From an uncultured Verrucomicrobiae bacterium (GTDB lineage Bacteria; Verrucomicrobiota; Verrucomicrobiia; Chthoniobacterales; UBA10450), in NCBI GenBank assembly GCA_963772365.1, contig CAVYXA010000005.1, positions 224,001 through 288,000 on the forward strand: 64,000 bases of DNA, read 5' to 3'. Of the stretch, positions 2,791-39,227 are shown piece after piece (position 1 is the stretch's first letter; every line of letters starts with the position of its first letter). Below the pieces are notes generated by a model that worked only from the letters and a program-made list of their open reading frames with translations, was not told the DNA's origin and made no database searches. The translations under genes were made by a program, and so were the position numbers.

Positions 2791-2792
2791 CA

Positions 2793-3259
2793 ATCTTGAT
2801 CATGCTCGTGCTCATGATCATGATCGAAGAATGAAGACATATTTCGATCACGAGAAGCTGGATGTTTATCAGGAGGCAATCGCCTTCTGCCGCTGGGTGG
2901 GTGAGTTCATCGGCGGCATCAATGCTAGGCTTGCGGCAAAAGACCAGCTCGATCGCGCTTCCACAAGCATTCCGCTTAATATCGCCGAAGGAAACGGCAA
3001 GCTTTCTAATGCTGATCGAGCACGATTTCTGGAAATAGGACGCGGCTCCGCTCTGGAGTGTGCCGCTTGTCTGGATGTCGTCGTCGCGCGCAGACTCGCT
3101 CAGCCCGATGATATTGTTGCCGCGAAAGAGCAGCTCGTCCGTATTGTAAATATGTTGATGGGGCTGTTGAAACGCTTTTCAGGCCGCGCCGAATTCTTGC
3201 GTGAAGATGAAGCACTTTATCACATCGATCATGATCAGGATCATGAGCATGATCATGAT
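2793..3259. repeat. 35-nt inverted repeat of hexamer units flanking a four-helix-bundle gene
   Basis: Left arm 2793-2827 ATCTTGATCATGCTCGTGCTCATGATCATGATCGA; right arm 3225-3259 TCGATCATGATCAGGATCATGAGCATGATCATGAT. 31/35 Watson-Crick complementary by manual alignment. Confidence 0.85.
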
Positions 3260-3271
3260 GGGACGAGATGA
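2831..3271 (+). CDS. Four helix bundle protein (23S rRNA IVS protein-like family)
   Basis: MKTYFDHEKLDVYQ...DQLDRASTSIPLNIAEG...GSALECAACLD. Start at ATG 2831. Confidence 0.9.
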   Translation: MKTYFDHEKLDVYQEAIAFCRWVGEFIGGINARLAAKDQLDRASTSIPLNIAEGNGKLSNADRARFLEIGRGSALECAACLDVVVARRLAQPDDIVAAKEQLVRIVNMLMGLLKRFSGRAEFLREDEALYHIDHDQDHEHDHDGTR

Positions 3272-4479
3272 GTAAACTCACCCTTCGCGATCTCAACGTG
3301 CGCGGGAAACGCGTGCTGGTGCGGGTTGATTTCAATGTTCCCACCGATGTTCACGGAGGGAAGTTTCGAATCACCGATGACACCAGAATTCGGGAGAGCT
3401 TGCCCACGATCAATTATCTTCGCGAGCACAAGGCCAAGACGATTTTGATGTCGCATTTTGGTCGGCCTAAAGGGAAACCGGTCGATAAATTTTCGCTGCG
3501 TTCAATAGGCGATCATTTGCATTCGCTCATTCATCATCCGGTGATTTTCAGCCACGACACGATCGGGAACGTGCCGAAGACAATCATCGAGTCGATGCAG
3601 GAAGGCGATGTCGCTTTGCTGGAAAATGTGCGGTTCCAGCCGGAGGAAGAAGCCAACGATCCGAAGTTTGCCGAAGCCCTGGCCAATTTGGGGGATCTTT
3701 ATGTGAATGATGCTTTTGGTACGGCGCATCGCGCTCATGCTTCGACGGCTGGCATTACGAAGTTCGTGAAGCAATCGGCGATGGGCCTGTTGATGGAAAA
3801 GGAGCTGAAATATCTGCGGGAAGAATTGACCAAACCAAAAAAACCATTCCTCGTGATCATGGGCGGCTCGAAAGTTTCCGATAAAATAGGTGTGCTCAAA
3901 GCCCTCATGGAAAAAGCTGACACCATCCTGATCGGGGGCGCGATGGCGAACACGTTTTTCAAAGCGCAGGGGATTCCGATCGGTGAAAGCCGGGTCGAGT
4001 CTGACAAAGTCAATCTCGCGAATGAAATTGTCGATCTTGCCAAAGAACGCGAAGTGAAATTTGTGTTGCCCGTCGATGTCGTCGAAGCGGAAGAAGTTCA
4101 ATCGGGTGCGTCCATGACGAACACGAGCCGGCTTTCGCCGGAACATGGCGTCCGCGACGGCTGGCACGCGGTCGATATCGGCACGGCGACAATCGCGTTG
4201 TATCAGGAAGAGATAGCCAAGGCGGAAACGATTTTGTGGAACGGTCCGCTGGGCGTTTTTGAAATTCCCGAATTCGCGGAAGGCACCATAGCAATCGCAG
4301 AAGCTCTCGCGCAATGCGGTGCTACCACGATCATCGGTGGTGGTGATTCAGTCACAGCAGTAAAGCAAGCAGGCTTGGCCGACAAAATGACGTTTATTTC
4401 GACCGGCGGCGGTGCGTCGCTTGAATTATTGGAAGGCAAGGAACTGCCTGGAGTCGCAGCATTATCGGATAAATCTTAG
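3268..4479 (+). CDS. pgk: Phosphoglycerate kinase
   Basis: VRVDFNVP, NDAFGTAHRAH, STGGGASLELLEG. Confidence 0.98.
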   Translation: MSKLTLRDLNVRGKRVLVRVDFNVPTDVHGGKFRITDDTRIRESLPTINYLREHKAKTILMSHFGRPKGKPVDKFSLRSIGDHLHSLIHHPVIFSHDTIGNVPKTIIESMQEGDVALLENVRFQPEEEANDPKFAEALANLGDLYVNDAFGTAHRAHASTAGITKFVKQSAMGLLMEKELKYLREELTKPKKPFLVIMGGSKVSDKIGVLKALMEKADTILIGGAMANTFFKAQGIPIGESRVESDKVNLANEIVDLAKEREVKFVLPVDVVEAEEVQSGASMTNTSRLSPEHGVRDGWHAVDIGTATIALYQEEIAKAETILWNGPLGVFEIPEFAEGTIAIAEALAQCGATTIIGGGDSVTAVKQAGLADKMTFISTGGGASLELLEGKELPGVAALSDKS

Positions 4480-4486
4480 GGCTTTC

Positions 4487-5251
4487 ATGAGAAAGAAAAT
4501 CATCGCGGCGAATTGGAAAATGAACAAAACGCAGGCCGAGGCCGAGCGTTTCATCGAGAGCTTCCTGATCGAGATCGGCGACAATCGTGATGCCGAGATC
4601 GTGATCATTCCGCCGTTCACGGCGATCGCGAAGGTGAATGAGGCGTTAGGCAAAGCGCAACACATCAAGGTAGGCGCGCAAAACATGCACTGGGAACCCC
4701 ACGGCGCATTCACCGGCGAGATCTCCGCTTCCATGCTGCGCGATTTGTTCGTGCGCTATGTCGTGCTCGGCCATAGCGAACGGCGGACCTTGTTTGGCGA
4801 AACCGATAAAATCGTAAACCGGAAAGCGCGAGCCGCACACGACTCGGCATTGCGCCCGATTGTGTGTGTCGGGGAAACACTTGAGCAGCGCGACAAGGGA
4901 AATGTGGATAAGATATTGTCGATCCAGCTCCGCGGAAGTCTGGCTGGTCTCGAGGCGAAACAATTACAGGAGACTGTGATTGCGTATGAGCCGGTCTGGG
5001 CGATCGGCACCGGTCGCAACGCTACGCCGGGTGAGGCTCAAGATGCACATGCCTTTATCCGACAGGTGATAGGCGAGATGTCCGATGGCGCGACGGCCGA
5101 CAGAATTCGGGTCCAGTACGGCGGAAGTGTGAAACCCGAAAATGCGCGCGAGCTGATGTCGCAACCGGACATCGATGGCGCGCTAGTTGGAGGGGCCAGT
5201 CTCGAACCGCGCAGCTTTGCCGAGATTGTAAAGGTAGCGAGCGAGCAATAG
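4487..5251 (+). CDS. tpiA: Triosephosphate isomerase
   Basis: AANWKMN, AYEPVWAIGTG, YGGSVKPEN, DGALVGGASL. Start at ATG 4487. Confidence 0.98.
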   Translation: MRKKIIAANWKMNKTQAEAERFIESFLIEIGDNRDAEIVIIPPFTAIAKVNEALGKAQHIKVGAQNMHWEPHGAFTGEISASMLRDLFVRYVVLGHSERRTLFGETDKIVNRKARAAHDSALRPIVCVGETLEQRDKGNVDKILSIQLRGSLAGLEAKQLQETVIAYEPVWAIGTGRNATPGEAQDAHAFIRQVIGEMSDGATADRIRVQYGGSVKPENARELMSQPDIDGALVGGASLEPRSFAEIVKVASEQ

Positions 5252-5332
5252 CGGATTCAACGGGCTGTTTTGTGGCCGACTTGCTCGTTGGTCTTGCAAT
5301 CTGTCCAATCCTATAAATCCTGTCTGGAGATC

Positions 5333-5792
5333 TCTTCCTCTTCCTCTCCCTCTTAATCTTGATCCGAACATTAATCTCTATGCCGTTCCATCACGAAAAG
5401 CTGACCGTCTATCGACGAGCGTTAGAATTCGCGACTTGGTCGCAAATTCTCATCGACTCATTAACTAAAACGACCTCGACCCGCGATCACTTGGAGCGTG
5501 CCGGCGACAGCATTGCGTTGAATATCGCCGAGGGAAACGGCAAATTCTCACAGACAGATCGGGCCCGTTTTTTCCAGATCGCACACGGCTCGGCTCTTGA
5601 GTCCGCAGGATGCCTTGATCTTCTGGTCGCGCGAGGCTGTTGTGAAGGCGATGCAATCGTGAAAGGCAAAGCGCTGCTGGAAGAAATCGTAAAGATGCTT
5701 TTTAAGATGCTTGATCAACTGGGCTGCAGGATCGCGAAAGATGCGCCCGGCTACGGGGAGGCAGCAGACGAAGAGGAAGCGGAAGAGGAAGA
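5333..5792. repeat. 22-nt inverted repeat of hexamer units flanking the second four-helix-bundle gene
   Basis: Left arm 5333-5354 TCTTCCTCTTCCTCTCCCTCTT; right arm 5771-5792 AAGAGGAAGCGGAAGAGGAAGA. 20/22 complementary. Confidence 0.8.
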
Positions 5793-5796
5793 TTGA
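5380..5796 (+). CDS. Four helix bundle protein, second paralogue
   Basis: MPFHHEKLTVY...HLERAGDSIALNIAEGNGK...GSALESAGCLD, clearly homologous to 2831..3271. Confidence 0.9.
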   Translation: MPFHHEKLTVYRRALEFATWSQILIDSLTKTTSTRDHLERAGDSIALNIAEGNGKFSQTDRARFFQIAHGSALESAGCLDLLVARGCCEGDAIVKGKALLEEIVKMLFKMLDQLGCRIAKDAPGYGEAADEEEAEEED

Positions 5797-5798
5797 TC

Positions 5799-6329
5799 AT
5801 GGCAATCACCGTTCCACGACCGAAGCTGAATTGGCGTGAGCGCCTTTATCTTCCGGCAATTTTTGCCGGCCTGGTGATCACCTTCAAACATTTCGTGAAC
5901 ATGCTGCTCGGTCGCACCAAGGTGACCATGCAATATCCGGAAGAGAAATGGGATTCGAATTTGCCCGATCACTATCGCGGTGCGCCCGCTCTGGTGAGAG
6001 ATGCCGATGGTCGGGTGCGCTGCGTCGCGTGTCAGCTTTGTGAATTCATCTGCCCACCGCGTGCGATCAAGATTGTCCCAGGCGAAATTCCATCGACCGA
6101 TCGGTTTGCCAAAGTCGAGAAACATCCCGAGGAATTCGATATCGACATGATCCGCTGCATCTTTTGCGGGATGTGCGAGGAGGTTTGTCCCGAGCAGGCG
6201 ATTTTTTTACGAAAAGATTACGCCATCACCGGTTTCACTCGCGAAGAGATGGTGTATCGAAAAGACAAGCTGATCGAGATCGGCGGAGTGATGCATGGCG
6301 TCGTTTTGAAATGGAATGAAAAGAAGTGA
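5799..6329 (+). CDS. nuoI: NADH-quinone oxidoreductase subunit I
   Basis: Two CxxCxxCxxxCP motifs and TMQYPEEK. Confidence 0.95.
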   Translation: MAITVPRPKLNWRERLYLPAIFAGLVITFKHFVNMLLGRTKVTMQYPEEKWDSNLPDHYRGAPALVRDADGRVRCVACQLCEFICPPRAIKIVPGEIPSTDRFAKVEKHPEEFDIDMIRCIFCGMCEEVCPEQAIFLRKDYAITGFTREEMVYRKDKLIEIGGVMHGVVLKWNEKK

Positions 6330-6330
6330 G

Positions 6331-6409
6331 GCCACAGCTTGACACAGATGTTCGCCGATTTTTCAGATTTCGATCTTACATCTGTGTTTGATCTGTGTTC
6401 ATCTGTGGC
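6331..6409. repeat. Empty inverted-repeat element (ACACAGATG-type 9-mer units) between nuoI and nuoJ
   Basis: GCCACAGCTTGACACAGATG ... CATCTGTGTTTGATCTGTGTTCATCTGTGGC. Confidence 0.8.
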
Positions 6410-6416
6410 TTGAAAA

Positions 6417-6920
6417 ATGTCTGCATTTCTTTTCTGGATATTCGCGATCATGATGCTGGTGTTCGGCGCGGCCGTGATCATCGTGCGCAATCCAGTGGCC
6501 AGCGCGCTGAATCTGGTGATGTCGTTCCTCGGGCTGGCAGCGCTTTTCATTTTGCTCGATGCTTACTTCATCGGCATCATCCAGGTCCTCGTTTATGCCG
6601 GAGCGGTGATGGTGCTGTTCCTTTTCATCATCATGCTTTTGAACCTGCGGGCCGAGGAAGCGCGACGAATCAACTGGCCGACCGGTATGGGGGCGATCGC
6701 GGTCGGTCAGCTTCTGATGTTCCAGATTTTTTTTGTCGTCGCGCATTTTAAAGCCGCCGCGCAACCATTTCCGCCGTTACCAACATCGACAATCGATGAC
6801 GTCCGAAACGTCGGCGCCTTGTTGTTCGCCAATTACAATCTGCCATTTCAGATCATTGGCGTGCTGGTGCTCGTCGCCACAATTGGCGTAGTTCTTCTGA
6901 GCAAGCGCGAAACGAAATAA
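6417..6920 (+). CDS. nuoJ: NADH-quinone oxidoreductase subunit J
   Basis: QVLVYAGAVMVLFLFIIMLL. Confidence 0.95.
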   Translation: MSAFLFWIFAIMMLVFGAAVIIVRNPVASALNLVMSFLGLAALFILLDAYFIGIIQVLVYAGAVMVLFLFIIMLLNLRAEEARRINWPTGMGAIAVGQLLMFQIFFVVAHFKAAAQPFPPLPTSTIDDVRNVGALLFANYNLPFQIIGVLVLVATIGVVLLSKRETK

Positions 6921-6933
6921 GATGAAACTTTTA

Positions 6934-7037
6934 GCCCGCGAATCACGCGAATGCGCGCGAATGAGAGAGATGCAAAAGCCCACTCTCAAGCTCAGCTCAT
7001 ATCTATTTCTTCGCGTCTATTCGCGTGATTCGCGGGC
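6934..7037. repeat. Empty inverted-repeat element (CGCGAAT units) between nuoJ and nuoK
   Basis: GCCCGCGAATCACGCGAAT... / ...ATTCGCGTGATTCGCGGGC, a perfect 19-bp terminal complement. Confidence 0.9.
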
Positions 7038-7049
7038 CGAAAGAATAGC

Positions 7050-7370
7050 ATGATTACACTCGGACAATACCTGATCGCCAGCGGAATTTTGTTCGCAATC
7101 GGATTTGCCGGAGTGATCCTGCGTCGAAATCTCATTGTCATTTTGATGTCGCTCGAATTGATGTTGAATGCGGCCAATCTCTCGCTGGTGGCGTTCTCCC
7201 GATTTCGTGTCGATCCAACTGGTATGCCGAATTACAACGCGCAGGTCTTCGTTTTTTTCATCATCACCGTGGCGGCGGCTGAAGTCGCCGTTGGCCTTGC
7301 CATCATCGTAGCTCTCTATCGCCTCCGCCAGACCACCGATGTAAAAGACATCAGCAGTTTGAAATTTTGA
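7050..7370 (+). CDS. nuoK: NADH-quinone oxidoreductase subunit K
   Basis: [22 protein letters not shown]. Confidence 0.95.
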
Positions 7371-7851
7371 GCCCGCGAATCACGCGAATCAAAGCGAATT
7401 ATGACGGAAATCATTCATAGGAAAGAAAGTTACGCGATTATCGGGGCCTGCTTTGAGGTCTACAATGATAAGGGCTGTGGGTTTCTCGAACCGGTTTATC
7501 AGGAATGTCTCGGCATCGAATTTGAATACCAGCGGGTACCAGCGATTCCTAAACCGTTCCTCACCCTCAATTACCGTGGACGTATTTTGACACAAACTTA
7601 CGTGCCGGATTTCGTTTGCTTCGAAAAAATTATCGTTGAACTGAAAGCGGTATCGGCCCTAATCGACGAGCACCGGGCTCAGCTCCTGAATTACCTGCAC
7701 GCCACCGGCTTCGAGCTAGGCCTATTAGTGAATTTTGGCCATTACCCGAAACTTGAACATGAACGCATTGCAAAGACTCGGTACATACCACCAAAATCCG
7801 ACTTTTCAGATGTGTCTTTGTAAATTCGCGTTAATTCGCGTGATTCGCGGG
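7371..7851. repeat. Filled inverted-repeat element (same CGCGAAT arms) enclosing the GxxExxY gene
   Basis: Left arm 7371-7400 GCCCGCGAATCACGCGAATCAAAGCGAATT; right arm 7823-7851 AATTCGCGTTAATTCGCGTGATTCGCGGG. Confidence 0.9.
7401..7823 (+). CDS. GxxExxY protein (PD-(D/E)XK-like nuclease superfamily)
   Basis: GFLEPVY signature, PDFVCFEKIIVELKA and QLLNYL...GLLVNFG. Confidence 0.92.
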   Translation: MTEIIHRKESYAIIGACFEVYNDKGCGFLEPVYQECLGIEFEYQRVPAIPKPFLTLNYRGRILTQTYVPDFVCFEKIIVELKAVSALIDEHRAQLLNYLHATGFELGLLVNFGHYPKLEHERIAKTRYIPPKSDFSDVSL

Positions 7852-7859
7852 TCAATCCA

Positions 7860-9656
7860 ATGAATTCAATCTTGCCATGGATCATTCTGCTCGCGCCGCT
7901 GGTATCCGCGGTGATGATCACCGTCTTTACACTTCGCTCGAGAAAATTGAGCAGTTTCATCTCGGTCGCGGCTGTGTTCGTGAGTTTTGTCTGCAGTTGT
8001 TTGCTGTTCGTTCGAGGAAATCTTCCCGCTGTCGAGCTGAACTGGATCGACATTAGCGGCGGCCTGAGTGTTCCGCTCGGATTCCTATTAGATCAATTGA
8101 GCAAAACAATGCTCGTTCTGGTGTCGGGCGTTGGTTTGATCATTCACATTTATTCGCTCGGCTACATGCGCGGCGATGATGGCAAATCCCGCTATTTCGC
8201 CGGTCTGTCGCTCTTCATGTTCGCGATGCTCGGGATCGTCCTTTCGAACAATTTCGTCATGCTCTTTATTTTTTGGGAGCTGGTCGGCTTTACCTCCTAT
8301 TTGTTGATTGGGCATTGGTTTGAGCGGAACGCAGCTGCGGACGCCGCGAAGAAGGCTTTCATCACGACCCGAATCGGCGACTTCGGATTCATGCTGGGCA
8401 TCCTCATGATTTGGATGCCGACGGGCTCCGTGGTTTTTTCCGAACTGGCCGAGCGGATGTCGATCCTGACAGATCATCCCGCCTATGTGACTGCTGCCGC
8501 GCTTTTGATCTTTTGCGGTGCAGTTGGGAAATCGGCCCAATTTCCGCTGCACGTGTGGTTGCCCGACGCCATGGAAGGTCCGACACCGGTTTCGGCGTTG
8601 ATCCACGCCGCGACGATGGTGGCAGCGGGAGTTTACATGCTGGCGCGCGTCGGGTTCATCATTCAAACCTCGCCAGCGGCTCTCGCGGTTATCGCATGGA
8701 TTGGCACCATCACCGCGCTCATGGCCGCGTTGATGGCGACGCAGCAGGACGATATCAAACGCATCCTGGCCTATTCTACTCTCTCGCAACTTGGTTACAT
8801 GGTGATGGCAATCGGGCTGACCTCGAGCAGCGCGGCCATGTTTCACCTTTTTACCCACGCATTTTTCAAAGCGCTGCTCTTTCTCGGCGCCGGTTCGATC
8901 ATCGTTGCGCTGCATCACGAACAAGACATTTGGGAAATGGGCGGCCTTGCGCGGAATTTGAAGTTAACGTTCGTCACCTTTTTGATCGGCGGACTTGCCC
9001 TCATGGGTTGCCCACCGTTCAGCGGATTTTTCAGTAAGGATGCAATCCTGGCGCTGGCCTACGAAAAAAACATGCCGATCTTCGTGCTCGGCCTCGGCAC
9101 GGCGTTTCTGACTGCCTTTTACGCGACGCGGATGTTGGTGGTCGTGTTCTTTGGCCATCCGCGCGGGCATGCTGCGCGGGTGAGCCGGGAGTCACCGCTT
9201 GTCATGACCCTTCCCCTGATTGCGCTCGCCGGGCTCGTGATTCTGAGCAGCATCGAATCTTTCAATCAACGATTTCTTCCGCTCCCGACCGAAAGCGGGG
9301 CGTCTCGAAATGTCCTGCTATTAGCCACCGGTGCATTGGTTTTCGGTGCAGGCCTGGCGATCTTGTTTTATCGTGGGCGCGCCACCGAGGCGGTGCACGT
9401 CAATCTTCTCCGGCGCCGTTTTTACATCGACGACTTTTATCAGTGGTTGATTCACTGGACGCAGGACCTGCTCGCGCGCGTTTCAGCTTTTTTTGATCGC
9501 TGGATTATCGACGCCCTAGCCGTGCGCGGCACCAGTGGCGGAACATGGGGAATCGGTGCCGTGCTTCGGCTCATTCAGGTCGGTAATCTCCAAGCCTATG
9601 CGTTCCTGCTCGGTCTCGGCGTCATTGCCCTGATCTATTTCGCGCTGTCGGGGTAA
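7860..9656 (+). CDS. nuoL: NADH-quinone oxidoreductase subunit L
   Basis: GKSAQFPLHVWLPDAMEGPTPVSALIHAATMV. Confidence 0.97.
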   Translation: MNSILPWIILLAPLVSAVMITVFTLRSRKLSSFISVAAVFVSFVCSCLLFVRGNLPAVELNWIDISGGLSVPLGFLLDQLSKTMLVLVSGVGLIIHIYSLGYMRGDDGKSRYFAGLSLFMFAMLGIVLSNNFVMLFIFWELVGFTSYLLIGHWFERNAAADAAKKAFITTRIGDFGFMLGILMIWMPTGSVVFSELAERMSILTDHPAYVTAAALLIFCGAVGKSAQFPLHVWLPDAMEGPTPVSALIHAATMVAAGVYMLARVGFIIQTSPAALAVIAWIGTITALMAALMATQQDDIKRILAYSTLSQLGYMVMAIGLTSSSAAMFHLFTHAFFKALLFLGAGSIIVALHHEQDIWEMGGLARNLKLTFVTFLIGGLALMGCPPFSGFFSKDAILALAYEKNMPIFVLGLGTAFLTAFYATRMLVVVFFGHPRGHAARVSRESPLVMTLPLIALAGLVILSSIESFNQRFLPLPTESGASRNVLLLATGALVFGAGLAILFYRGRATEAVHVNLLRRRFYIDDFYQWLIHWTQDLLARVSAFFDRWIIDALAVRGTSGGTWGIGAVLRLIQVGNLQAYAFLLGLGVIALIYFALSG

Positions 9657-9667
9657 ATACGTAAGCC

Positions 9668-11146
9668 ATGCTTTTGTTCATTATCTTCTGCCCGTTTGTG
9701 GCCGCCATTTTGATCATGGCTCGCGCGCCGGCGCGAAAGACAGCCCTGGCGGCTTCGGCGCTCACATTGATCGCCACATTATTCCTTTTTGTGACGTTCA
9801 ACAGATCGGCACCAGGTTTTGAGCACGTGACTTCATTCACAATCCTGTCCGATTGGCATTTGCGGTTCACCACGGGCATCGACGGCCTGAACGTGATCAT
9901 GATATTGCTCGCGGCCATTGTCACTGTAGCGGCTGTCTCCTTCACAAGTAAGATCGACAAGTTTGAGAACCAATTCTACGCCTGCCTTCTGTTCATATCA
10001 GGCGGGGTGATTGGCGCATTTGCATCGCTCGATCTCTTTTTCTTTTACGCCTTTCACGAGATCGCACTGATTCCCACTTTTTTACTGATCGGGATTTGGG
10101 GCAGCGGCAATCGCGTGGCAGCCGCGTGGAAGATCACGATCTATCTTGCGGTCGGAAGTTTCATTCTGCTCTTGGGATTGATCCTGCTTTACCAAAGTGT
10201 TCCAGCGGCAACCCGCAGCTTCGACATTCGCGAACTACAGGCCGCGATCGCCACGATGCAACTTCCGGCTAACGCGCAGCATCACGTCTATCTGCTACTT
10301 CTGACCGGTTTCGGCGTTCTCGTGTCGTTGTTTCCATTTCACAGCTGGGCGCCGGAAGCGTACGCCTCTGCGCCTCCGCCTGCCGCGATGTTGCACGCGG
10401 GCGTGCTGAAAAAATTCGGTCTCTACGGTTTGTTGCGGATCGCTCTTCCGCTGCTGCCAGAAGGCGCGCGACACTGGAACCAGGTGCTGATCATCTTCCT
10501 TCTCGGCAACATTATTTACATAGGCCTCGTTACGATCGCTCAGAAACGGCTCGATTGGATGCTCGGCTACTCCAGTGTCATGCACATGGGTTATATTTTT
10601 CTAGGAATTGCCGCCGCCAACACGGTGAGTACGACCGGCGCGGCAACTTTGATCTTCGCTCACGGACTTTCCATCGCGCTGCTTTTTGCCATCGCGGGAG
10701 AAATCCGGAAACGGACCGGCACACTCGTCCTCGATGATCTGGGTGGACTTGGCAAAGTGATGCCGCTCGCCGGGCTGGCGTTTGGTTTGGGTGCATTCGC
10801 TGCGATCGGTCTTCCCGGCTTTGCCAATTTTTCAGGCGAAATCATGATCTTCTTTGGGGCGTTTCGAAAAGGCTGGGAGATAGGCCGTTTTCATGTATTT
10901 CAAATCGCCACTGTGCTCGCGATTTGGGGTGTCGTAATTTCAGCGATTTACATGCTGCGCGCCTACCGCAAAGCATTCATGGGAACGCCGGAGGATGGGC
11001 GAAAGGCATTTGTTGATCTTAGGTCCGGGCTGCGCTGGGCGGTTGCCCTTCTGGTCGTTGCTTCACTCTGGATTGGATTTCACCCGCAATCATTCGTCAG
11101 GGTTCTCACTCCCACTTTCAACGCATATTTCGCCGCGAACCGATGA
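9668..11146 (+). CDS. nuoM: NADH-quinone oxidoreductase subunit M
   Basis: FPFHSWAPEAY, LKKFGLYG, YSSVMHMG; position in operon. Confidence 0.95.
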   Translation: MLLFIIFCPFVAAILIMARAPARKTALAASALTLIATLFLFVTFNRSAPGFEHVTSFTILSDWHLRFTTGIDGLNVIMILLAAIVTVAAVSFTSKIDKFENQFYACLLFISGGVIGAFASLDLFFFYAFHEIALIPTFLLIGIWGSGNRVAAAWKITIYLAVGSFILLLGLILLYQSVPAATRSFDIRELQAAIATMQLPANAQHHVYLLLLTGFGVLVSLFPFHSWAPEAYASAPPPAAMLHAGVLKKFGLYGLLRIALPLLPEGARHWNQVLIIFLLGNIIYIGLVTIAQKRLDWMLGYSSVMHMGYIFLGIAAANTVSTTGAATLIFAHGLSIALLFAIAGEIRKRTGTLVLDDLGGLGKVMPLAGLAFGLGAFAAIGLPGFANFSGEIMIFFGAFRKGWEIGRFHVFQIATVLAIWGVVISAIYMLRAYRKAFMGTPEDGRKAFVDLRSGLRWAVALLVVASLWIGFHPQSFVRVLTPTFNAYFAANR

Positions 11147-12570
11147 TCGCGATTACGGCGCCAATGCTGGAGATCTTCGTGCTCGTATTGGGCATGGGCA
11201 TGCTGATGTTGGAAGCGTTCACTACGAAGATCGACAAACGTTTTCTGGCCTACGCTGGAATTGCTGGTCTCGCGATTGTGTTGATCATCAGTTTCTTTTT
11301 GGCTCCGGCTCCTTCGCCGGAGCACGCGACCGGGTTTTGGAATTTTTACACGGCCGACGCGTTGTCGATCTTCTTTAAACGTTTCGCGCTACTCACCACA
11401 ATTCTGGTGTTGATCATGATGATTGATTACGCGCCGGTGGTTCACGAGTCGTTTCCAGGCCCGGGCCAGTCAGGTCTGGGCGAATTTTTTGCCGTCCCGA
11501 TCTTCACCTGCGCCGGGCTCATGTATCTTGTCTCGGCAATCGACTTCATTTTCATCTTCGTCGCGCTCGAGCTCGTGACGATTTCCTTTTACGTGCTGGT
11601 CAGTTTCACGAGAAAGAATCCGGTGACGCTGGAGGCTGGGGTGAAATATCTTGTCCTGAGCGCGCTTTCGACAGCCTTTCTTGTTTATGGAATCACCTGG
11701 CTGTTTGGCGTAACCGGCCAAACGAATTTGCATCGCATTTCGGTGGCGCTCAGCAACGGTTCCGTCGAGCGCGAACCTGCGCTGTTTGGAATGGTGCTCG
11801 TGTTGGTTGCTGTCGGTTTCAAGATTGCCGCGGTTCCATTTCAGATCTGGGTGCCGGATGTTTATCAGGGCGCGCCGACACCGGTAACTGCATTTCTCTC
11901 AGTCGGATCAAAGGCCGCCGGGTTCGTCGTTTTGCTTCGTGTATTGCAGCCGTTCCTAATGTTGCCGCAAATCCATCGCCTGATCGTTTTGATTGCGCTG
12001 CTCACGTTGATCTACGGCAATCTCTCTGCGCTGCCGCAACGCAATTTAAAGCGATTGCTGGCATATTCGAGCATTGCTCATGCTGGCTATCTGCTAATGG
12101 GGGTGGCCTCGTTCGACGGCCGGGCAGTGTCGTTCTACTTGGTGGCTTATATGACGATGACGCTATTGAGTTTTGCCGTTTTGATCATTGTCGCCCAACA
12201 AACCGGCGAAGAGATCGCCGATTTCGATGGATTAGCCGCGCGTTCGCCATTCCTCGCTTTTGCGATGTTGATAGGAATGATTTCGCTGGCGGGTGTTCCT
12301 TTCACCGGCGGATTTCTCGGAAAATTTTTCATCTTCTATGCAGCGCTCGCGCAGGGGCAGATTGCGCTTGTTGTTGTCGGTGTCATCGCCGTGGGCTGCG
12401 GATTTTATTATTATTTGAAAGTAATCCGCGCGATGTATTGGCAGCCGGCGGCGAAGATCGACAAAATTTCCGTGAGCAATCTTTCTCGGGTCGCCATCAT
12501 CGGCTTGATTATCGCAACGATTTGGCTGGGTGTATTCCCGCAGCCAATTCTGGACGCGTTAAGGCGCTGA
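11143..12570 (+). CDS. nuoN: NADH-quinone oxidoreductase subunit N
   Basis: FKIAAVPFQIWVPDVYQGAPTP, KRLLAYSSIAHAGY. Confidence 0.97.
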   Translation: MIAITAPMLEIFVLVLGMGMLMLEAFTTKIDKRFLAYAGIAGLAIVLIISFFLAPAPSPEHATGFWNFYTADALSIFFKRFALLTTILVLIMMIDYAPVVHESFPGPGQSGLGEFFAVPIFTCAGLMYLVSAIDFIFIFVALELVTISFYVLVSFTRKNPVTLEAGVKYLVLSALSTAFLVYGITWLFGVTGQTNLHRISVALSNGSVEREPALFGMVLVLVAVGFKIAAVPFQIWVPDVYQGAPTPVTAFLSVGSKAAGFVVLLRVLQPFLMLPQIHRLIVLIALLTLIYGNLSALPQRNLKRLLAYSSIAHAGYLLMGVASFDGRAVSFYLVAYMTMTLLSFAVLIIVAQQTGEEIADFDGLAARSPFLAFAMLIGMISLAGVPFTGGFLGKFFIFYAALAQGQIALVVVGVIAVGCGFYYYLKVIRAMYWQPAAKIDKISVSNLSRVAIIGLIIATIWLGVFPQPILDALRR

Positions 12571-12573
12571 AGA

Positions 12574-12640
12574 GTTAAAAAGTTAAAAGGTTACAACGTT
12601 ACAAAGGAGATTTCCCTTTTTAGCTTTGTAGCCTTTTAAC
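12574..12640. repeat. Empty inverted repeat of 8-mer units after nuoN; possible terminator between convergent genes
   Basis: GTTAAAAGGTTACAACGTTACAAAGG / CCTTTTTAGCTTTGTAGCCTTTTAAC, with 2 G-U pairs and 2 mismatches. Confidence 0.75.
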
Positions 12641-12656
12641 GAATCACTTGGCGACG

Positions 12657-13268
12657 CTAGTCGCTCAATTCGACGTTCCAATACGCGAGATCGACAAAGT
12701 GTCTCCAGCTTTCGTGCTGCGGTGCTTGGAATGTAATCTGCACGAACGGCCGCCACTTCGGCCGCTTTGGTTTGCGGATTAAAGTCATTTGCACTTCGCG
12801 CGCGAGCCGATTGCCCTTGCGAGTATTACAGGGAATACAGGAGCAGACTACGTTCTCCCAATTCGTCGTTCCGCCGCGGTCGCGCGGAATGACATGATCG
12901 AGATTCAAATCGTTGCGATCAAAAATCTGGCCGCAGTACTGACAGGTGTTCTTGTCGCGCTCGAACACATTATGCCGGGTAAACTTCACTTCCTTCTTCG
13001 GCAACCGATCGAAAAACAACAGCACAATCACCCGCGGGATCCGGATCTTGAACGAAATCGTCGTGACCAGCTCGTGGTCCGGGGCATTCGCAGAAAAATC
13101 GCGCCAGCTCTCGAAGTCATGGGTAAGAAAATTGTCCGTTTCGTCCGAGGAAACGACATGTGCGTGCCCCGCATAAACCAGAGAAAAAGCGCGTCGGGCA
13201 GAACAGATATTGACCGCCTGCCAGAGACGGTTCAGCACCAAAACCTGACTGTTTAACGAGGATTGCAA
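12657..13268 (-). CDS. HNH endonuclease (McrA-like)
   Basis: VLVLN N-terminus and RDKNTCQYCG...LDHVIPRDRGG...WENVVCSCIPCNTRK. TTG start is inferred. Confidence 0.9.
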   Translation of the reverse strand: MQSSLNSQVLVLNRLWQAVNICSARRAFSLVYAGHAHVVSSDETDNFLTHDFESWRDFSANAPDHELVTTISFKIRIPRVIVLLFFDRLPKKEVKFTRHNVFERDKNTCQYCGQIFDRNDLNLDHVIPRDRGGTTNWENVVCSCIPCNTRKGNRLAREVQMTLIRKPKRPKWRPFVQITFQAPQHESWRHFVDLAYWNVELSD

Positions 13269-13437
13269 ATATCGCCCTCCAGCCGCTTTGTTCCCGCCAA
13301 CCGCGAGCAATTCGCGGAAATCGGCGCGAAACTATCACCCGCGTTTTTCCTTGTCAACGAAGCCAAAACGGACAAGGCCAGATTATTATCCTGGCGCGAT
13401 GCTAGTTCAGACAACAAACGAACCAGCGCATAAGAAT

Positions 13438-13641
13438 ATGGGAGGACAAGGTTCAACCGGGAATGTGATCGCCGCACTATGCAGTTTCTTCATCCCCGGT
13501 CTCGGGCAATTACTGCAAGGCCGGTTGCTTATGGCCGGGATTCAGTTTTGCCTCGCTGCAGTGCTCTGGTTTGTCTTGCTCGGTTGGGTGATCCACATCT
13601 GGTCAATCCTCGACGCGGCGCTGTTCAAGCCGCGGGGTTAA
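13438..13641 (+). CDS. Small membrane protein
   Basis: AALCSFFIPGLGQLLQGR followed by hydrophobic helices. Confidence 0.7.
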   Translation: MGGQGSTGNVIAALCSFFIPGLGQLLQGRLLMAGIQFCLAAVLWFVLLGWVIHIWSILDAALFKPRG

Positions 13642-13645
13642 ACCG

Positions 13646-15857: not shown

Positions 15858-15994
15858 GATCTTGAGTTTCGGGTTCCAAATCTACCAGATTGCCTGCTGA
15901 TTCCACAAAAACATTTTGTTCGTAATGAACCGGCGGCAGTCAAATTTCTAGGCGCGCTTGCCTTCGGTGGAAAAGCAGCTTAGAAAAAGCGTCC

Positions 15995-16678
15995 GTGATT
16001 GAGTATATCCAGAAGGGCGGGTTGCTGATGTGGCCGATTCTGGTCTGCAGCATCATTTCCATTGCTGTGTTTGCAGAGCGGCTTTTCTATTTGCACCGCG
16101 CGACCATTCATGTCGGCGAGTTTTTGAAAGGATTGTCGAACCTGATTCAGCGGCGGAACTTTGCCGAAGCATTGCATGAATCGGCTGGCACGCCCGGGCC
16201 GGTGGCGAGAGTGATTCACGCAGCGATCATTCGGCACGATTCGCCGCGGGCGGAATTACGCGATATCGTGCAGGAAGCTGGCCAACTTGAAGTTCCGAAA
16301 TTGGAACGGTTCCTCGGAGTGCTGGCGACGATTGCTTTTCTGGCGCCTTTGCTTGGATTGCTCGGGACAGTTGCCGGCATGATCGACGCCTTCGGAACAA
16401 TCACGTCCAGCGGCGGCTATGTAACGGTGACCGAACTTTCGCGCGGCATTTATAAGAGCTTGTTGACAACTGCCGCCGGTCTCGTCGTGGCAACACCAAC
16501 CCTGGTTGCCTATAGTTATCTCTCCTCGCGAGTGACATCGATGATGCACGATATGGAGCGCGCCGGGATCGAGATCGTCCACATGCTGACGGAAAGCAAA
16601 CCGCTGGGCGGAATCATCAGTTTTCAGCACCCGAGCGAAAAAGCCGCGCGCGAACGTGAAGCGCGGCAGGATCGTTAG
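15995..16678 (+). CDS. exbB: MotA/TolQ/ExbB proton channel protein
   Basis: APLLGLLGTVAGMI, LLTTAAGLVVA. Confidence 0.88.
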   Translation: MIEYIQKGGLLMWPILVCSIISIAVFAERLFYLHRATIHVGEFLKGLSNLIQRRNFAEALHESAGTPGPVARVIHAAIIRHDSPRAELRDIVQEAGQLEVPKLERFLGVLATIAFLAPLLGLLGTVAGMIDAFGTITSSGGYVTVTELSRGIYKSLLTTAAGLVVATPTLVAYSYLSSRVTSMMHDMERAGIEIVHMLTESKPLGGIISFQHPSEKAAREREARQDR

Positions 16679-16701
16679 AGCGACATCACACCAACGCGCG
16701 C

Positions 16702-17112
16702 ATGAAGCTTAGTCGGACGAAGGAATATCACTTCGGCTGGCTTGTGGTGTTACCGCTGCTGGACATCGTCTTTCTGCTCGTTTTTTTTGTGCTGCTCAGC
16801 TCCCATTTCATTCTGCAGCCGGGCATTTCGGTCTCAATGCCGTTCTCGCGATTTAGCCTCGGTCCGCAGGTAGATCAGCAAATCATCAGCATCACCGGCG
16901 GTTCGGCACCTGTGATTTATTTCCGCGACCAAAAAGTAAAGCTCGAGCAACTCGGGCCGATGCTGGACAGCGCAAAACGCCAGGGACGATCGATCGTTAT
17001 TAAGGCCGACCGGTTTACTCCTTATCAAGTTGTGATGGAAGTGACGAACACGGCATTGGAACACGGAATCACTTCTGTTTCCCTGGCTGCGACTCCGGCC
17101 ACATCGCGATGA
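16702..17112 (+). CDS. exbD: ExbD/TolR family protein
   Basis: PLLDIVFLLVFF, IKAD; follows exbB. Confidence 0.85.
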   Translation: MKLSRTKEYHFGWLVVLPLLDIVFLLVFFVLLSSHFILQPGISVSMPFSRFSLGPQVDQQIISITGGSAPVIYFRDQKVKLEQLGPMLDSAKRQGRSIVIKADRFTPYQVVMEVTNTALEHGITSVSLAATPATSR

Positions 17113-17223
17113 ATGTTGCACTTTTTCGGATGATCTGCTCGAAGGGAAAGCTGGCAGCTTCCCCTGCACCGCCTCTTTGGCAATGAACGCGATAGCTTCG
17201 GCAGATCCAACGCTTTTATTTGA

Positions 17224-17976
17224 ATGGGAAACTCCGCGCCGCGGGTAGCTGCTCTCGCGTTTTTTGTAATCGCATCTCTTCTCGGCCATGCTGTTTGTTT
17301 CTATCTCTTCCAGATCATCTATCCGCCTACGGTTGCACTTCTCCCGCCGCCGGCCCGGGTAACCTTAATCACCTCGGATTCCGAGGAAGGTCGTACTCTC
17401 TTGCGCTGGATCGAAGCAGAGGATCCCGCGCTTGCTTTTACGACGTTGCGCTCTCCTGAAAACAAACTGCGCTCATTGCCGAAGATTGCTCATATCCCGT
17501 CCTACACGACCAATGAGCTAATCCTGAAACAACCGCCGCCTTTGACTGTCGATCGTCGCCCCCCGAGTTCTCAACCCCCGGGACGAGTTCCCAGTCTGGA
17601 GCGGCCGGTTCTGCCGAATCCAGAGAAGATCCCGACTAGCGTATCCTTTTCCGAGGAATTCACTTCGTTAGGCACTCCGGCTTTTGTCGCGCCAAAGTTT
17701 GCCGCATCATCCAACGAGCCGCCGCAAAATGTCCCGTTCAGGGTTGCGGTTTCGCCCGCTGGCGAAATTCGATATTGTTTCCCGCTTGGCTCCTCCGGCG
17801 ATTCGGCCCTGGATCAACAAGCGCACGATTTTATCATGCTCACGCGTTTCCCCGGGGCCGACAAATCGCAAACGCGAGATGAGAAGCTGACTTGGGGCGT
17901 CGCCACGGTGAACTGGGGCAACGATGTCGCGCTGCCAGGCCAAACCGGTTCCGTTAAAACAAAATCTCCCAATTAG
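17224..17976 (+). CDS. TonB-like protein
   Basis: N-terminal TM helix with His, Pro-rich linker and C-terminal SSGDSALDQQA; follows exbBD. Confidence 0.6.
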   Translation: MGNSAPRVAALAFFVIASLLGHAVCFYLFQIIYPPTVALLPPPARVTLITSDSEEGRTLLRWIEAEDPALAFTTLRSPENKLRSLPKIAHIPSYTTNELILKQPPPLTVDRRPPSSQPPGRVPSLERPVLPNPEKIPTSVSFSEEFTSLGTPAFVAPKFAASSNEPPQNVPFRVAVSPAGEIRYCFPLGSSGDSALDQQAHDFIMLTRFPGADKSQTRDEKLTWGVATVNWGNDVALPGQTGSVKTKSPN

Positions 17977-17981
17977 GTGCC

Positions 17982-18221
17982 GTGATCCGAGTCAGTCTCA
18001 CCGCGCTGGTCACGATTTATTTGCTGCTTTTTCTTGCGGCGGTATTTCTCTTCTGGATAGTGGGAGAATGGAATCGCCGCCGGCGCGAGCGACGAGCATT
18101 ACGCTACAGGCTGCGCTGTGTGATTTGTGCGTTCGAATTTGAAGATCGAACCGACGCATTGCTTCCGCGGTGTCCGCGCTGCGGGAGTTTAAACGAGCGA
18201 TTCAAACTGGAACGAATTTAA
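17982..18221 (+). CDS. Small membrane-anchored zinc-ribbon protein
   Basis: TM helix, then CVIC...CPRC. Confidence 0.65.
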   Translation: MIRVSLTALVTIYLLLFLAAVFLFWIVGEWNRRRRERRALRYRLRCVICAFEFEDRTDALLPRCPRCGSLNERFKLERI

Positions 18222-18223
18222 GT

Positions 18224-19402
18224 ATGGGAATGTGGATAGGCCGGAACCGAAAAGCCCGCGTCACCTACGGGTTCGACGAGGTCGCGCTCGTGCCTGGCCG
18301 TGTGACAATTAACCCTAACGAGGTGGACACGACTTTTCGTTTGCCGCGAAAGAATGCCGAACCGCTCGGGTTGAAAATTCCGGTCCTGGCGAGTGCCATG
18401 GATGGAGTTGTCGATGTTCGGTTCGCGGTGGCCATGAGCAAGCTCGGTGGTCTGGCTGTGTTGAATCTCGAAGGAATACAAACCCGCTACAAAAATCCGC
18501 AGGAAGTTCTGCAAAAAGTAGTCGAGGCGGACAAATCGGAAGTCACTTCGCTCCTGCAGAAAATTTATCAGGAACCGATTCAAGAAAATCTCATTGCGGC
18601 GCGGGTCCGACAAATTAAAGATGGCGGAGCAGTAGCGGCGGTGAGTTCCATCCCGCAGCGGGCGGCGGAATTTGGTCAGATTGCGCAAGAGGCCGGCGCG
18701 GATGTTTTCGTCGTCCAAAGCACTGTTTCCACTGTGCGCCACATTTCATCGGAGTACAAATCGCTCGACTTGGAAAAATTTTGCCGGGAAATGCGCATTC
18801 CGGTCATTGTCGGGAACACGGTCGGCTATGATGTGACGTTTGAAATCATGGAATGCGGCCCGGCCGCGGTGCTGATCGGTGTGGGACCCGGCGCGGCGTG
18901 CACTTCCCGCGGCGTGCTCGGACTCGGTGTCCCGCAGGTCACTGCTACGGTAGATTGCGCGGCGGCGCGCGACGCTTATTTCAAGAAGACCGCGCGTTAT
19001 GTTCCGATCATCACCGATGGCGGAATGAGCCGGGGCGGCGATGTCTGCAAAGCGCTGGCTTGCGGCTCGGATGCAGTAATGATCGGCAGCGCCTTTGCCA
19101 GAGCGCAAGAAGCACCCGGATGCGGCTATCATTGGGGAATGGCCACGCCGCATGCCAATCTGCCGCGTGGGACACGCATCAAAGTCGGAACTACCGGCCC
19201 ATTAAAACAGATTCTTTTCGGACCGGCAGAAGTTGATGATGGCAGCCAAAATCTCGTCGGCGCGATTACGACCTGCATGGGAAATGTAGGCGCGCGAAAT
19301 CTGGCTGAGTTCCAGCAAACCGAAGTCATCATCGCGCCTTCGATCCGGACCGAAGGCAAGCTTTTCCAGACCGTGCAAAGCGTTGGGATGGGGACAAGCT
19401 GA
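18224..19402 (+). CDS. GuaB3-family IMP dehydrogenase-related protein
   Basis: YGFDEVALVPG, GVGPGAACTSR, DGGM, HWGMATPH; no CBS domains. Confidence 0.9.
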   Translation: MGMWIGRNRKARVTYGFDEVALVPGRVTINPNEVDTTFRLPRKNAEPLGLKIPVLASAMDGVVDVRFAVAMSKLGGLAVLNLEGIQTRYKNPQEVLQKVVEADKSEVTSLLQKIYQEPIQENLIAARVRQIKDGGAVAAVSSIPQRAAEFGQIAQEAGADVFVVQSTVSTVRHISSEYKSLDLEKFCREMRIPVIVGNTVGYDVTFEIMECGPAAVLIGVGPGAACTSRGVLGLGVPQVTATVDCAAARDAYFKKTARYVPIITDGGMSRGGDVCKALACGSDAVMIGSAFARAQEAPGCGYHWGMATPHANLPRGTRIKVGTTGPLKQILFGPAEVDDGSQNLVGAITTCMGNVGARNLAEFQQTEVIIAPSIRTEGKLFQTVQSVGMGTS

Positions 19403-19407
19403 AGCCC

Positions 19408-19521
19408 ATTTAGCGATTTTAGCGATCTGAAGATTTAGAGATTCGCTCTTGATCTCGCCTTAAATCGCTAAACCATTAAATCGCCTGATCTTTAAATCAC
19501 CAAATCGCTAAACTGCTAAAT
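19408..19521. repeat. Empty inverted-repeat element of 8-mer units (ATTTAGCG / AAATCGCT) between guaB3 and fabF
   Basis: ATTTAGCGATTTTAGCGATCTGAAGATTTAGAGAT pairs imperfectly with ATCTTTAAATCACCAAATCGCTAAACTGCTAAAT, with extra units in between. Confidence 0.8.
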
Positions 19522-38540: not shown

Positions 38541-39227
38541 GTGACTCCGCTCGAGGAACGTATCGGTTACAAATTTCGCAATCCGCTTTTACTAGCGGAG
38601 GCGCTTACTCATCCGAGCCTCGGCCACGAAACCCAGCGTTATCATTTCGATAATCAGCGCCTGGAATTTCTCGGTGATGCGGTGCTCCAACTCGTGGTCA
38701 CGGAGTATCTCTTTCAACACTTCAGCGCGGAAGCGGAAGGTCGTCTCACCAAACTGCGTTCGCGCCTCGTTTCGCGCAATACACTAAAGGAGCATGCCGC
38801 TGCCCTCGACCTGGGAAGTCATCTCCTCCTGGGCCGTGGCGAAGAAGCCAGTGGCGGCCGGAAACGAGCATCGACATTGGCCGATGCATTCGAAGCATTG
38901 ATCGGCGCGATTTATCTGGATAGCGACCTGGAAACGGCAAAGAAATTCATCCTCGACCAGGCTCGCGCAGACCTCGAGCAAATCGCGGAAGAACCCGTCG
39001 ATATCAATCCCAAAGGGCATTTACAGGAATTACTACAAAGCATCTCGCCGCGCAGTCCGGAGTATCAAGTCGTTTCCCAAAGCGGGCCCGAGCATGAAAA
39101 GACGTTCGTCGTCAAAGTCGTGTGGGAGGGAATCGAGTTGGGTCAGGGCAGCGGAAGGAGTAAGAAACAAGCGGAGACTGCGGCGGCGATCGAGGCGATG
39201 GATTTGAGACGCTGGGAGAAAAGATAA
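38541..39227 (+). CDS. rnc: Ribonuclease III
   Basis: NQRLEFLGDAVL, ADAFEALIGA and a dsRBD. Confidence 0.97.
   Translation: MTPLEERIGYKFRNPLLLAEALTHPSLGHETQRYHFDNQRLEFLGDAVLQLVVTEYLFQHFSAEAEGRLTKLRSRLVSRNTLKEHAAALDLGSHLLLGRGEEASGGRKRASTLADAFEALIGAIYLDSDLETAKKFILDQARADLEQIAEEPVDINPKGHLQELLQSISPRSPEYQVVSQSGPEHEKTFVVKVVWEGIELGQGSGRSKKQAETAAAIEAMDLRRWEKR

Follow-up and report, generated by a model that had tools for sequence, protein, structure and literature searches.

Small-gene cassettes with inverted arms of tandem words, resembling rRNA intervening sequences, at operon junctions of an uncultured Verrucomicrobiae bacterium

We analyzed a 64,000-nucleotide stretch of the genome of an uncultured Verrucomicrobiae bacterium (G000:C5:224001-288000, part of a 3.35-Mb, 6-contig assembly; hereafter the window), in which seven short elements, E1 to E7, lie at junctions between protein genes. 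Profile matches identify their neighbors as Gap, Pgk, TpiA, NuoI–N, GuaB3 and FabF. The order is gap, E1, pgk, tpiA, E2, nuoI, E3, nuoJ, E4, nuoK, E5, nuoL, nuoM, nuoN, E6, and E7 lies further along, between guaB3 and fabF. All seven junctions carry complementary arms built from tandem words of 6–10 nt (Table 1). Three arm pairs enclose a co-oriented gene, which is a four-helix-bundle gene (FHB; PF05635/TIGR02436, “23S rRNA-intervening sequence protein”) in E1 and E2 and a GxxExxY gene (GX; PF13366/TIGR04256) in E5. E3, E4, E6 and E7 are gene-less hairpins with loops of 7–50 nt. An earlier reading of this DNA, the original prediction, had described seven junctions with complementary tandem-word arms, three filled and four empty, and Tandem Repeats Finder, an inverted-repeat scan and RNA folds bear out this description.

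Table 1. Elements E1–E7 of the window, with their arms and genes. I numbers are ranks in the inverted-repeat scan, followed by arm length and complementarity; pairs and z refer to the minimum-energy folds.
Feature	Position	Strand	Word arrays (Tandem Repeats Finder)	Particulars
E1, filled cassette, gap/pgk	2793..3259	+	2793-2825/3227-3259	I1: 35 nt, 89%; 40 terminal pairs, z -3.0
E1 arms	2793-2827 and 3225-3259	+		hexamer words (ATCATG/CATGAT)
E1 FHB gene	2831-3271	+		TIGR02436 2e-20, PF05635 6e-22
E2, filled cassette, tpiA/nuoI	5333..5796	+	5332-5354/5766-5792	I7: 27 nt, 85%; 27 terminal pairs, z -1.3
E2 arms	5333-5359 and 5766-5792	+		CTCTTC/GAAGAG words
E2 FHB gene	5380-5796	+		TIGR02436 1e-17, PF05635 3e-19
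E3, empty hairpin, nuoI/J	6330..6410	+	6379-6407	CACAGAT-type words; 26 pairs, z -3.8
E4, empty hairpin, nuoJ/K	6928..7043	+	6937-6963/7010-7034	I2: 34 nt, 85%; 44 pairs, z -10.2
E5, filled cassette, nuoK/L	7372..7851	+	7374-7399/7823-7849	I4: 29 nt, 93%
E5 arms	7372-7400 and 7823-7851	+		CGCGAAT words, three per arm
E5 GxxExxY / PD-(D/E)XK gene	7401-7823	+		TIGR04256 5e-37, PF13366 1e-37
E6, empty hairpin after nuoN	12582..12640	+	12573-12607	GTTAAAA-type 8-nt words; I8; z -6.9
E7, empty hairpin, guaB3/fabF	19409..19512	+	19409-19426	TTTAGCGAT words; I10; z -4.2

In the scan of the 64 kb, the arms take ranks I1, I2, I4, I7, I8 and I10 among the best 25 of 37 inverted pairs; I3, I5 and I6 arise when those same arms are paired crosswise or in an alternative way, so that the elements supply the strongest short-range inverted repeats of the entire window. 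The arms listed by the scan are 22–35 nt long and 84–93% complementary. The hairpin at nuoI/J (E3) is gapped and is not among the best 25 of the 37 pairs; it folds with its terminal arms paired. In minimum-energy RNA folds the terminal arms pair in all seven elements, with 24–44 pairs between the first and last 70 nt and z = −1.3 to −10.2 relative to dinucleotide shuffles. Rfam gave no match over positions 1–22000 at E up to 1.

The filled elements fit tightly between their neighbors. The stop codon of the FHB gene of E1 overlaps the pgk start codon (3268), and the 3′ arm lies inside the open reading frame (ORF), where it is translated as a His/Asp-rich tail. The 3′ arm of E2 likewise lies inside the ORF and is read as a Glu-rich tail, with the nuoI start at 5799. 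The 5′ arm of E5 begins 1 nt past the nuoK stop, and its 3′ arm stops 8 nt short of the nuoL start. Filled cassettes elsewhere have arms whose words match those of the empty hairpins, strongly for E3, E4 and E6 and more weakly for E7. E3 resembles GX-cassette arms in relatives (score 14.0 against a library 99th percentile of 10), and a 19-nt run is common to the arms of E4 and E5. In the genus-mate G001, an FHB cassette has arms formed of the words of E6 (18.0 against a 99th percentile of 7.5; G numbers denote genomes), and E7 resembles GX-type arms in inverted orientation (13.5 against 8.5).

To place these elements in a wider setting, we scored the flanks of cargo genes in the bacterium's own genome, which holds 12 FHB and 6 GX genes, one GX gene being frameshifted. 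Flanking inverted repeats score at least 13 in 9 of the 12 FHB and in all 6 GX genes, compared with a mean of 8.05, a 99th percentile of 12 and a maximum of 19 at 400 random positions, which rules out chance. The survey was extended to a total of 37 relatives, taking 40 GX genes from the top of a ranked list (about 50 candidates from 110 matches, internal-stop hits removed) and 40 FHB genes as the first 40 of 150 matches listed; with three unpublished genomes left out and the own-genome copies added, the samples came to 46 GX and 52 FHB genes. Arms exceed the 99th percentile of 300 random sites (13.0) around 39 of the 46 GX and 42 of the 52 FHB genes, far above the controls, as the original prediction would have it for cargo genes elsewhere. 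The median element span is 462 nt for GX and 469 nt for FHB. Across 81 cassettes, the median gap from the upstream stop to the arm is 3 nt (68 with a co-oriented upstream ORF), and that from the arm to the downstream start is 8 nt (73 cassettes). Within the own genome, cassettes lie in macAB-like, sdhA/sdhB, metK/ahcY, cdsA/dxr, nuoF/nuoG, dxs and polysaccharide operons, and almost all of them are co-oriented.

Word length differs between the two cargo families. Where periodicity is clear, FHB arms repeat every 7 nt in 32 of 39 cases (8 nt in 5, 6 nt and 12 nt in one each), whereas 19 of 20 GX arms are made of 8–10-nt words. The hexamers of the window belong to one FHB lineage at gap/pgk, plus the tpiA/nuoI copy, with the 3′ arm within the reading frame; they are a special case with a translated 3′ arm. 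The E1 orthologues at gap/pgk in G010, G005, G004 and G009 translate the 3′ arm as well, and at this junction the words change in step on both sides, from ATCATG/CATGAT here to CTCGTG/CACGAG or CTCCTG/CAGGAG in relatives. CGCGAAT is one of many words inside a single GX clade. The proposal that the unit type tracks the cargo family therefore holds for the period, and for arm similarity as described below, but not for the hexamer as the rule of FHB cassettes, nor for CGCGAAT as a family-wide mark of GxxExxY genes.

Arms and cargo behave as one unit. A scan with the GX alignment as query, one genome per species, gave 586 confirmed relatives, of which the best 80 (57–84% protein identity) come from Verrucomicrobiota, Planctomycetota, Acidobacteriota, Kiritimatiellota, Lentisphaerota, Armatimonadota, Thermodesulfobacteriota, Calditrichota and other phyla. 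Among the 79 usable loci of these 80, arms scoring at least 15 are present in 68, and they can be aligned as versions of a single three-word pattern. Within the order, the more alike two cargos are, the more alike are their arms, with a Mantel r of 0.69 for GX and 0.48 for FHB, figures that include a contribution from orthologous loci; none of 1000 permutations reached as high. The correlation is lost below about 55% cargo identity. Arms and cargo are thus inherited and transferred together, across phyla.

The same junctions were compared in published genomes of relatives, with G003, G008 and G014 left out of the counts. At nuoK/L, 19 of 28 genomes have a spacer of 2–19 nt and 9 are occupied, six by an intact GX cassette, one by a frameshifted one and two by another repeat. 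On a NuoJ–N tree of 21 genomes this occupancy requires four changes, at least three of them forced by well-supported branches. The cargo at nuoK/L falls into two separately supported clades, one comprising the own genome and G011 and the other G001, G022, G017 and G021; the own genome and its genus-mate G001 therefore carry different lineages at the same place. At gap/pgk, five of 13 genomes have the FHB orthologue, two have hairpins of other words (one of them G001), three have other inserts and three are tight. The pgk/tpiA junction is tight in the own genome and holds GX-type word hairpins in G011, G015, G012 and G004. The nuoI/J junction has word hairpins in 14 of 26 genomes, in six word types as judged by eye, and a gene in none. 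Many relatives have the same operon with hairpin-free junctions of 2–12 nt.

The nuoJ/K junction is informative about the empty forms. It is tight (9 nt or less) in 22 of 28 genomes and occupied in five, and G032 has a 31-nt spacer. G011 carries a GX gene with an internal deletion, G009 a stub consisting of the first 11 codons and the last few, and G022 and the own genome an empty hairpin, while G001 has a hairpin of another word. These states form a decay series from gene to internally deleted gene, stub and empty hairpin, along which arm complementarity is retained via double changes, and E4 is its end state. The junctions are accordingly not invariant, in contrast to the invariance that would have refuted the original prediction: absent, empty and filled states occur among relatives, and the earlier claim of a family with cargo-bearing and empty forms stands.

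Several side observations concern these operons. The nuoF/G junction of relatives (loci L031 and L034–L048) is occupied by a GX gene in eight cases; G022 has an FHB gene there, and G001 an FHB stub of 33 codons. The GX clade at this junction translates its 5′ arm words as a conserved N-terminus, MNQESRK. In the own genome, nuoI–N follow gap-pgk-tpiA (window 1789–12570), and another contig (G000:C1:1334000-1340500, L224) carries nuoF, a GX pseudogene, nuoG and then an unannotated 353-aa ORF that is probably nuoH. None of 20 relatives examined has gap, pgk or tpiA within about 5 kb upstream of nuoI, and eight of them have a GX match some 3 kb upstream of nuoI, read as the nuoF/G junction. The gap-pgk-tpiA/nuoI order of the own genome reflects a rearrangement, the new joint of which bears a cassette (E2), or else a join made in assembly.

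The known system closest to these elements is the intervening sequence (IVS) of 23S rRNA. According to the available text of PMC4990558, the IVS of Coxiella burnetii 23S rRNA measures 428–444 nt, has a 28-bp terminal stem, contains an S23p ORF of the PF05635 family and is excised by RNase III; the origin and mobility of IVSs have been unexplained since about 1990, and one stated hypothesis is that the ORF served mobility. As that text presents them, IVSs (Coxiella helix 45, Leptospira) share with our elements a length of about 430–470 nt, a 20–35-bp stem, one small PF05635 ORF, a sporadic distribution with suspected horizontal transfer, and the lack of a transposase. The filled elements of the window span 460–480 nt with arms of 27–35 nt that are 85–93% complementary, and two of the three, E1 and E2, carry PF05635 cargo, E5 carrying PF13366. 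IVSs lie in helix 9, 25 or 45 of rRNA, whereas all seven window elements lie between protein genes, and the own 23S rRNA gene (2874 nt, against a 2925-position model) has no insert. The arms here are tandem words renewed in concert, and the same design accommodates a second cargo family, the PD-(D/E)XK nuclease. The cargo here is under purifying selection, whereas the Coxiella ORF is reported in the available text as decaying (PMC4990558), and RNase III excision, demonstrated there for the IVS, would apply here by analogy.

We consider it probable that the elements are rRNA-IVS-like small gene cassettes that sit between the protein genes of mRNA operons, their copies being in varied states of decay. 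A cassette of about 460–470 bp consists of two inverted arms, each of about three tandem element-specific words, around one FHB or GX gene, and fills the space from the stop of one operon gene to the start of the next in the same orientation. Among relatives, such cassettes come, go and give way to others at the same junctions, and internal deletion turns them into gene-less hairpins. A cassette would have no promoter of its own and would be transcribed by operon read-through, and host RNase III may cut the stem in the transcript, as it does in rRNA IVSs; the cut would free the flanking cistrons and thereby make the insertion tolerable. The genome has a single RNase III gene (rnc; window 38550–39200 (+), TIGR02191, 6.7e-74). 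The arms may be renewed on DNA by arm-to-arm copying (template switching or hairpin-primed synthesis) together with slippage, or, alternatively, the cargo protein may recognize the words. As to movement, our best guess is that the GX nuclease works on its own cassette's hairpin or cruciform ends.

How the arms are kept bears on this reading. We aligned the arms of 44 whole GX cassettes, namely that of the window and 43 of the 79 loci (score at least 16, arm adjoining the gene, same orientation). Across 27 arm pairs in the 44 cassettes, 93.7% of cells are paired, compared with 81.3% in shuffles; double changes occur at 17 of the 27 pairs, and double-changed cells number 152, against 48 ± 6 in shuffles and at most 24 in slid controls. 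The words within an arm also stay alike: at four variable word positions, all three words agree in 32, 27, 42 and 39 of the 44 elements (shuffle means 10.9, 17.5, 31.4 and 17.9), and sets uniform in the minority letter number 13, 4, 4 and 9, far above shuffles, which for all these comparisons ignore relatedness. Minority words recur in separate cargo clades. As the synonymous sites of the cargo are saturated, the arms have not stayed about 90% complementary through descent alone; complementarity and word sameness are actively renewed.

A stem selected as sense RNA is expected to tolerate G:U and not A:C. Mispairs number 44 G:T, 61 A:C and 120 others across 68 GX loci, and 57, 68 and 130 across 81 cassettes, and the 44-cassette alignment contains about 19 wobble cells against 74 unpaired ones. 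This absence of a wobble preference argues for upkeep on DNA, or through protein recognition of the words, rather than for selection on a sense RNA stem, and on these sequence comparisons upkeep looks DNA-based. The same counts are a difficulty for the strongest alternative, in which the elements owe their existence to the RNA stem and are operon-mRNA intervening elements, selected so that the cargo RNA is excised or set apart by RNase III, with complementarity kept by selection on RNA pairing. Size, stem and cargo family are those of RNase III-excised rRNA IVSs, the arms of all seven elements are paired in their RNA folds, covariation in the aligned cassettes is strong, rnc is present, and the arms abut stop and start codons, with the 3′ arm covering the ribosome-binding region of the next gene. 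All of this would suit an RNA-first origin, but neither the mispairs nor the sameness of the three words of an arm, which RNA pairing need not require, does so, and we regard it as unlikely. The original prediction had placed the mechanism of the intervening elements at the RNA level; that part is not supported by the mispair counts, and the prediction as a whole is partly supported.

Returning to the cassette reading, both cargo proteins are under strong purifying selection. Among cargo orthologues, nonsynonymous divergence (dN) is 0.09–0.30, and synonymous sites are saturated in 22 of 25 pairs, which is why dN/dS could be computed for only three of the 25. In GX, the PD-(D/E)XK set of residues E30, D70, E80 and K82 is invariant in 45 sequences. 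Its AlphaFold model has a pLDDT of 90, and Foldseek returned weak matches (best E 2.6e-4, TMq 0.49), nearest to Cas4 (SSO0001), restriction-endonuclease-like proteins and lambda exonuclease, which therefore indicate the fold class only. A reading of GX as a Holliday-junction resolvase was dropped, the first such match standing at Foldseek rank 45 with E 0.11. The window FHB protein matches PDB 2gsc (XCC0516) at 1.6e-8. None of the three cargo proteins has a match in PADLOC or PHROGs, Protein Atlas gave no usable match outside PF13366, and a sequence search of the PDB gave none for GX. Both PF05635 and PF13366 are large protein families without a known function; in the available text of PMC11270868, 23S_rRNA_IVP is termed “functionally uncharacterized”, and PDDEXK_3 stands as “Unknown” in PMC3424549, where multiple transfers are given for it.

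The invariant catalytic residues and the purifying selection could also be expected of a free-standing homing endonuclease, with GX cutting the cassette-free junction, repair copying it in and the arms being incidental. Presence and absence at exactly the same junction in relatives, with re-colonization by two cargo clades at nuoK/L, would fit this. In the available text of PMC11270868, homing-endonuclease-bearing insertions are described in rRNA genes of the Candidate Phyla Radiation, with 23S_rRNA_IVP ORFs in 16S and 23S insertions. As in the systems of that text, small nuclease genes here come and go at fixed sites, and ORF-less versions are scattered over the host tree; GX resembles homing endonucleases further in its intact catalytic residues, FHB lacking such a site. 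Unlike those genes, however, the cassettes have word-repeat arms, a single cargo clade occupies many unrelated junctions across phyla, and half the cassettes carry non-nuclease cargo in the same architecture. The arms, which homing would not need, are conserved with the cargo and renewed, and we judge homing of this kind improbable. Least credible of all, to our minds, is that host regulatory hairpins (mRNA stabilizers, attenuators or REP-like repeats, that is, repetitive extragenic palindromes) came first and small genes lodged in their loops later: empty hairpins do outnumber filled ones in a strict scan of the genome (among word-periodic pairs, 17 have loops below 200 nt and 11 have longer ones, at least two of the 17 and at least three of the 11 not being such elements) and the nuoI/J hairpins never hold a gene, but the nuoJ/K series begins with a gene and ends in a hairpin, the window's empty hairpins match filled arms elsewhere in their words, arms and cargo move together across phyla, and many relatives have hairpin-free junctions in the same operon.

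Several points weigh against the cassette reading as a whole. No transposition event was caught, and full copies carry FHB or GX genes only, with no known transposase family in any cassette. At nuoK/L no target duplication is present, the cassette-free spacer being kept once, downstream of the cassette, as judged by eye; this agrees with the original prediction, as does the absence of a transposase within the seven elements. Same-genome pairs with common arm words are rare (1 of 27 GX and 1 of 50 FHB), and recent bursts are therefore not in evidence. The cargo has diverged about as far as the Nuo proteins, so that many copies may be long-standing residents kept by vertical descent, and a long history of purifying selection suits a gene useful to the host no less than a selfish one. 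A catalytic motif is absent from the FHB protein. Clear arms are absent from 7 of the 46 GX and 10 of the 52 FHB genes. A mismatched-flank control, pairing the upstream flank of one locus with the downstream flank of another, separates poorly, with a median of 9.5 against 20.5 observed, a 99th percentile of 26.1 and only 11 of 79 loci above it; homology of the arms between loci makes it a poor null, and random-position controls were used instead. The blindness of the shuffles to relatedness counts in the same direction. Finally, nearly all genomes are metagenome bins, and some cross-phylum placements may be binning errors.

A broader proposal, which we offer tentatively and think rather less probable than the cassette reading itself, is that the elements represent a widespread, undescribed mobile cassette. 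Its non-transposase cargo, a minimal Cas4-like PD-(D/E)XK nuclease or an Avd-like four-helix bundle, would recognize its own word arms and move or renew the cassette via hairpin or cruciform DNA, and the cassette would be the source both of rRNA IVSs and of the excess of 7–9-nt intergenic tandem repeats. Two candidates for mobility functions were rejected. The first is an HNH gene beside E6, which is a conserved single-copy host gene. The second comprises RAYT-like (REP-associated tyrosine transposase) Y1 transposases acting as helpers in trans; the nine Y1_Tnp matches in the genome adjoin other, ordinary high-copy REP families.

Published intergenic heptamer repeats form a further point of comparison. 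In its available text, PMC4692102 (Rehm et al.) describes GGGAATC arrays in Xanthomonas and GGGGA(C/T)T arrays in Nostoc; the Xanthomonas arrays lie between aligned ORFs, 70–75 of them as convergent (inverted) pairs, and in the supplementary table one array overlaps the start of XCC0516, the FHB protein of 2gsc. The available text of PMC4679880 (MacGregor) reports TAACTGA repeats in Beggiatoaceae, cyanobacteria and Bacteroidetes. As these sources portray them, such repeats resemble our arms in having tandem 7-nt units, in favoring few copies and in lying within about 50 bp of starts and stops. The available texts of both treat the repeats as quadruplex or regulatory sequences and differ from our account in leaving the enclosed FHB or GX genes unconnected with the repeats: “23S” and “helix bundle” have no occurrence in either, and “GxxExxY” has none in that of PMC4679880. 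The window words, such as GATCAT, CTCTTC, CGCGAAT, CACAGAT and GTTAAAA, have no G runs and are not G-rich, unlike the quadruplex heptamers, whose G-rich GGGNATC units can form G4 (Rehm 2015).

MITEs (miniature inverted-repeat transposable elements), REP and Correia-type elements are likewise short inverted-repeat elements in operon spacers, co-transcribed and present as gene-less copies. Correia-type elements have a link with RNase III. No end sequence is common to all copies here, each cassette lineage having its own word, and the lack of a target-site duplication at nuoK/L, by eye, is unlike a MITE. Compared with REPs and bacterial interspersed mosaic elements with their RAYTs, there is no single conserved palindrome of 20–40 nt in many copies. 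High-copy palindromic REP-like families, each of conserved sequence, do fill many spacers of the own genome (e.g. G000:C1:402447-402519 and C1:1187375-1187477), and one REP-like repeat is present at nuoK/L in G004; G015 and G002 have it at gap/pgk.

The IVS design and the PF05635 cargo are already known; no description of operon-borne cassettes was found in a literature search that left subscription journals largely outside. The findings link IVS-type elements, the PF05635 and PF13366 families and the published intergenic heptamer repeats, and they show central-metabolism and respiratory operons repeatedly colonized at exact stop/start junctions. In annotation, one element type could serve as the label for many “intergenic tandem repeats” and small “hypothetical” genes of operons.

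Some minor observations remain. The HNH gene beside E6 (window 12657–13310 (−)) encodes 217 aa, its HNH domain being of the IscB/Cas9 type (NF040563, 7e-15, which is below cut-off), and is convergent with nuoN; in 15 of the 20 relatives' loci searched it occupies the same convergent place and is 79–89% identical. At L244 (G006) and L247 (G009), pgk, and in G009 also tpiA, is matched in two to three pieces in different frames, owing to frameshifts or assembly errors. In G030, three GX genes (L154, L155 and L162) have composite arms of 49–76 nt with scores of 41–58, in which word arrays are nested inside longer inverted repeats. At L220 (G000:C1:1420430-1420768), an FHB gene lies between co-oriented fragments of an N6 DNA methylase (hsdM-like), one comprising HsdM_N and the beginning of N6_Mtase and the other a later portion of N6_Mtase, and the cassette appears to split the gene.

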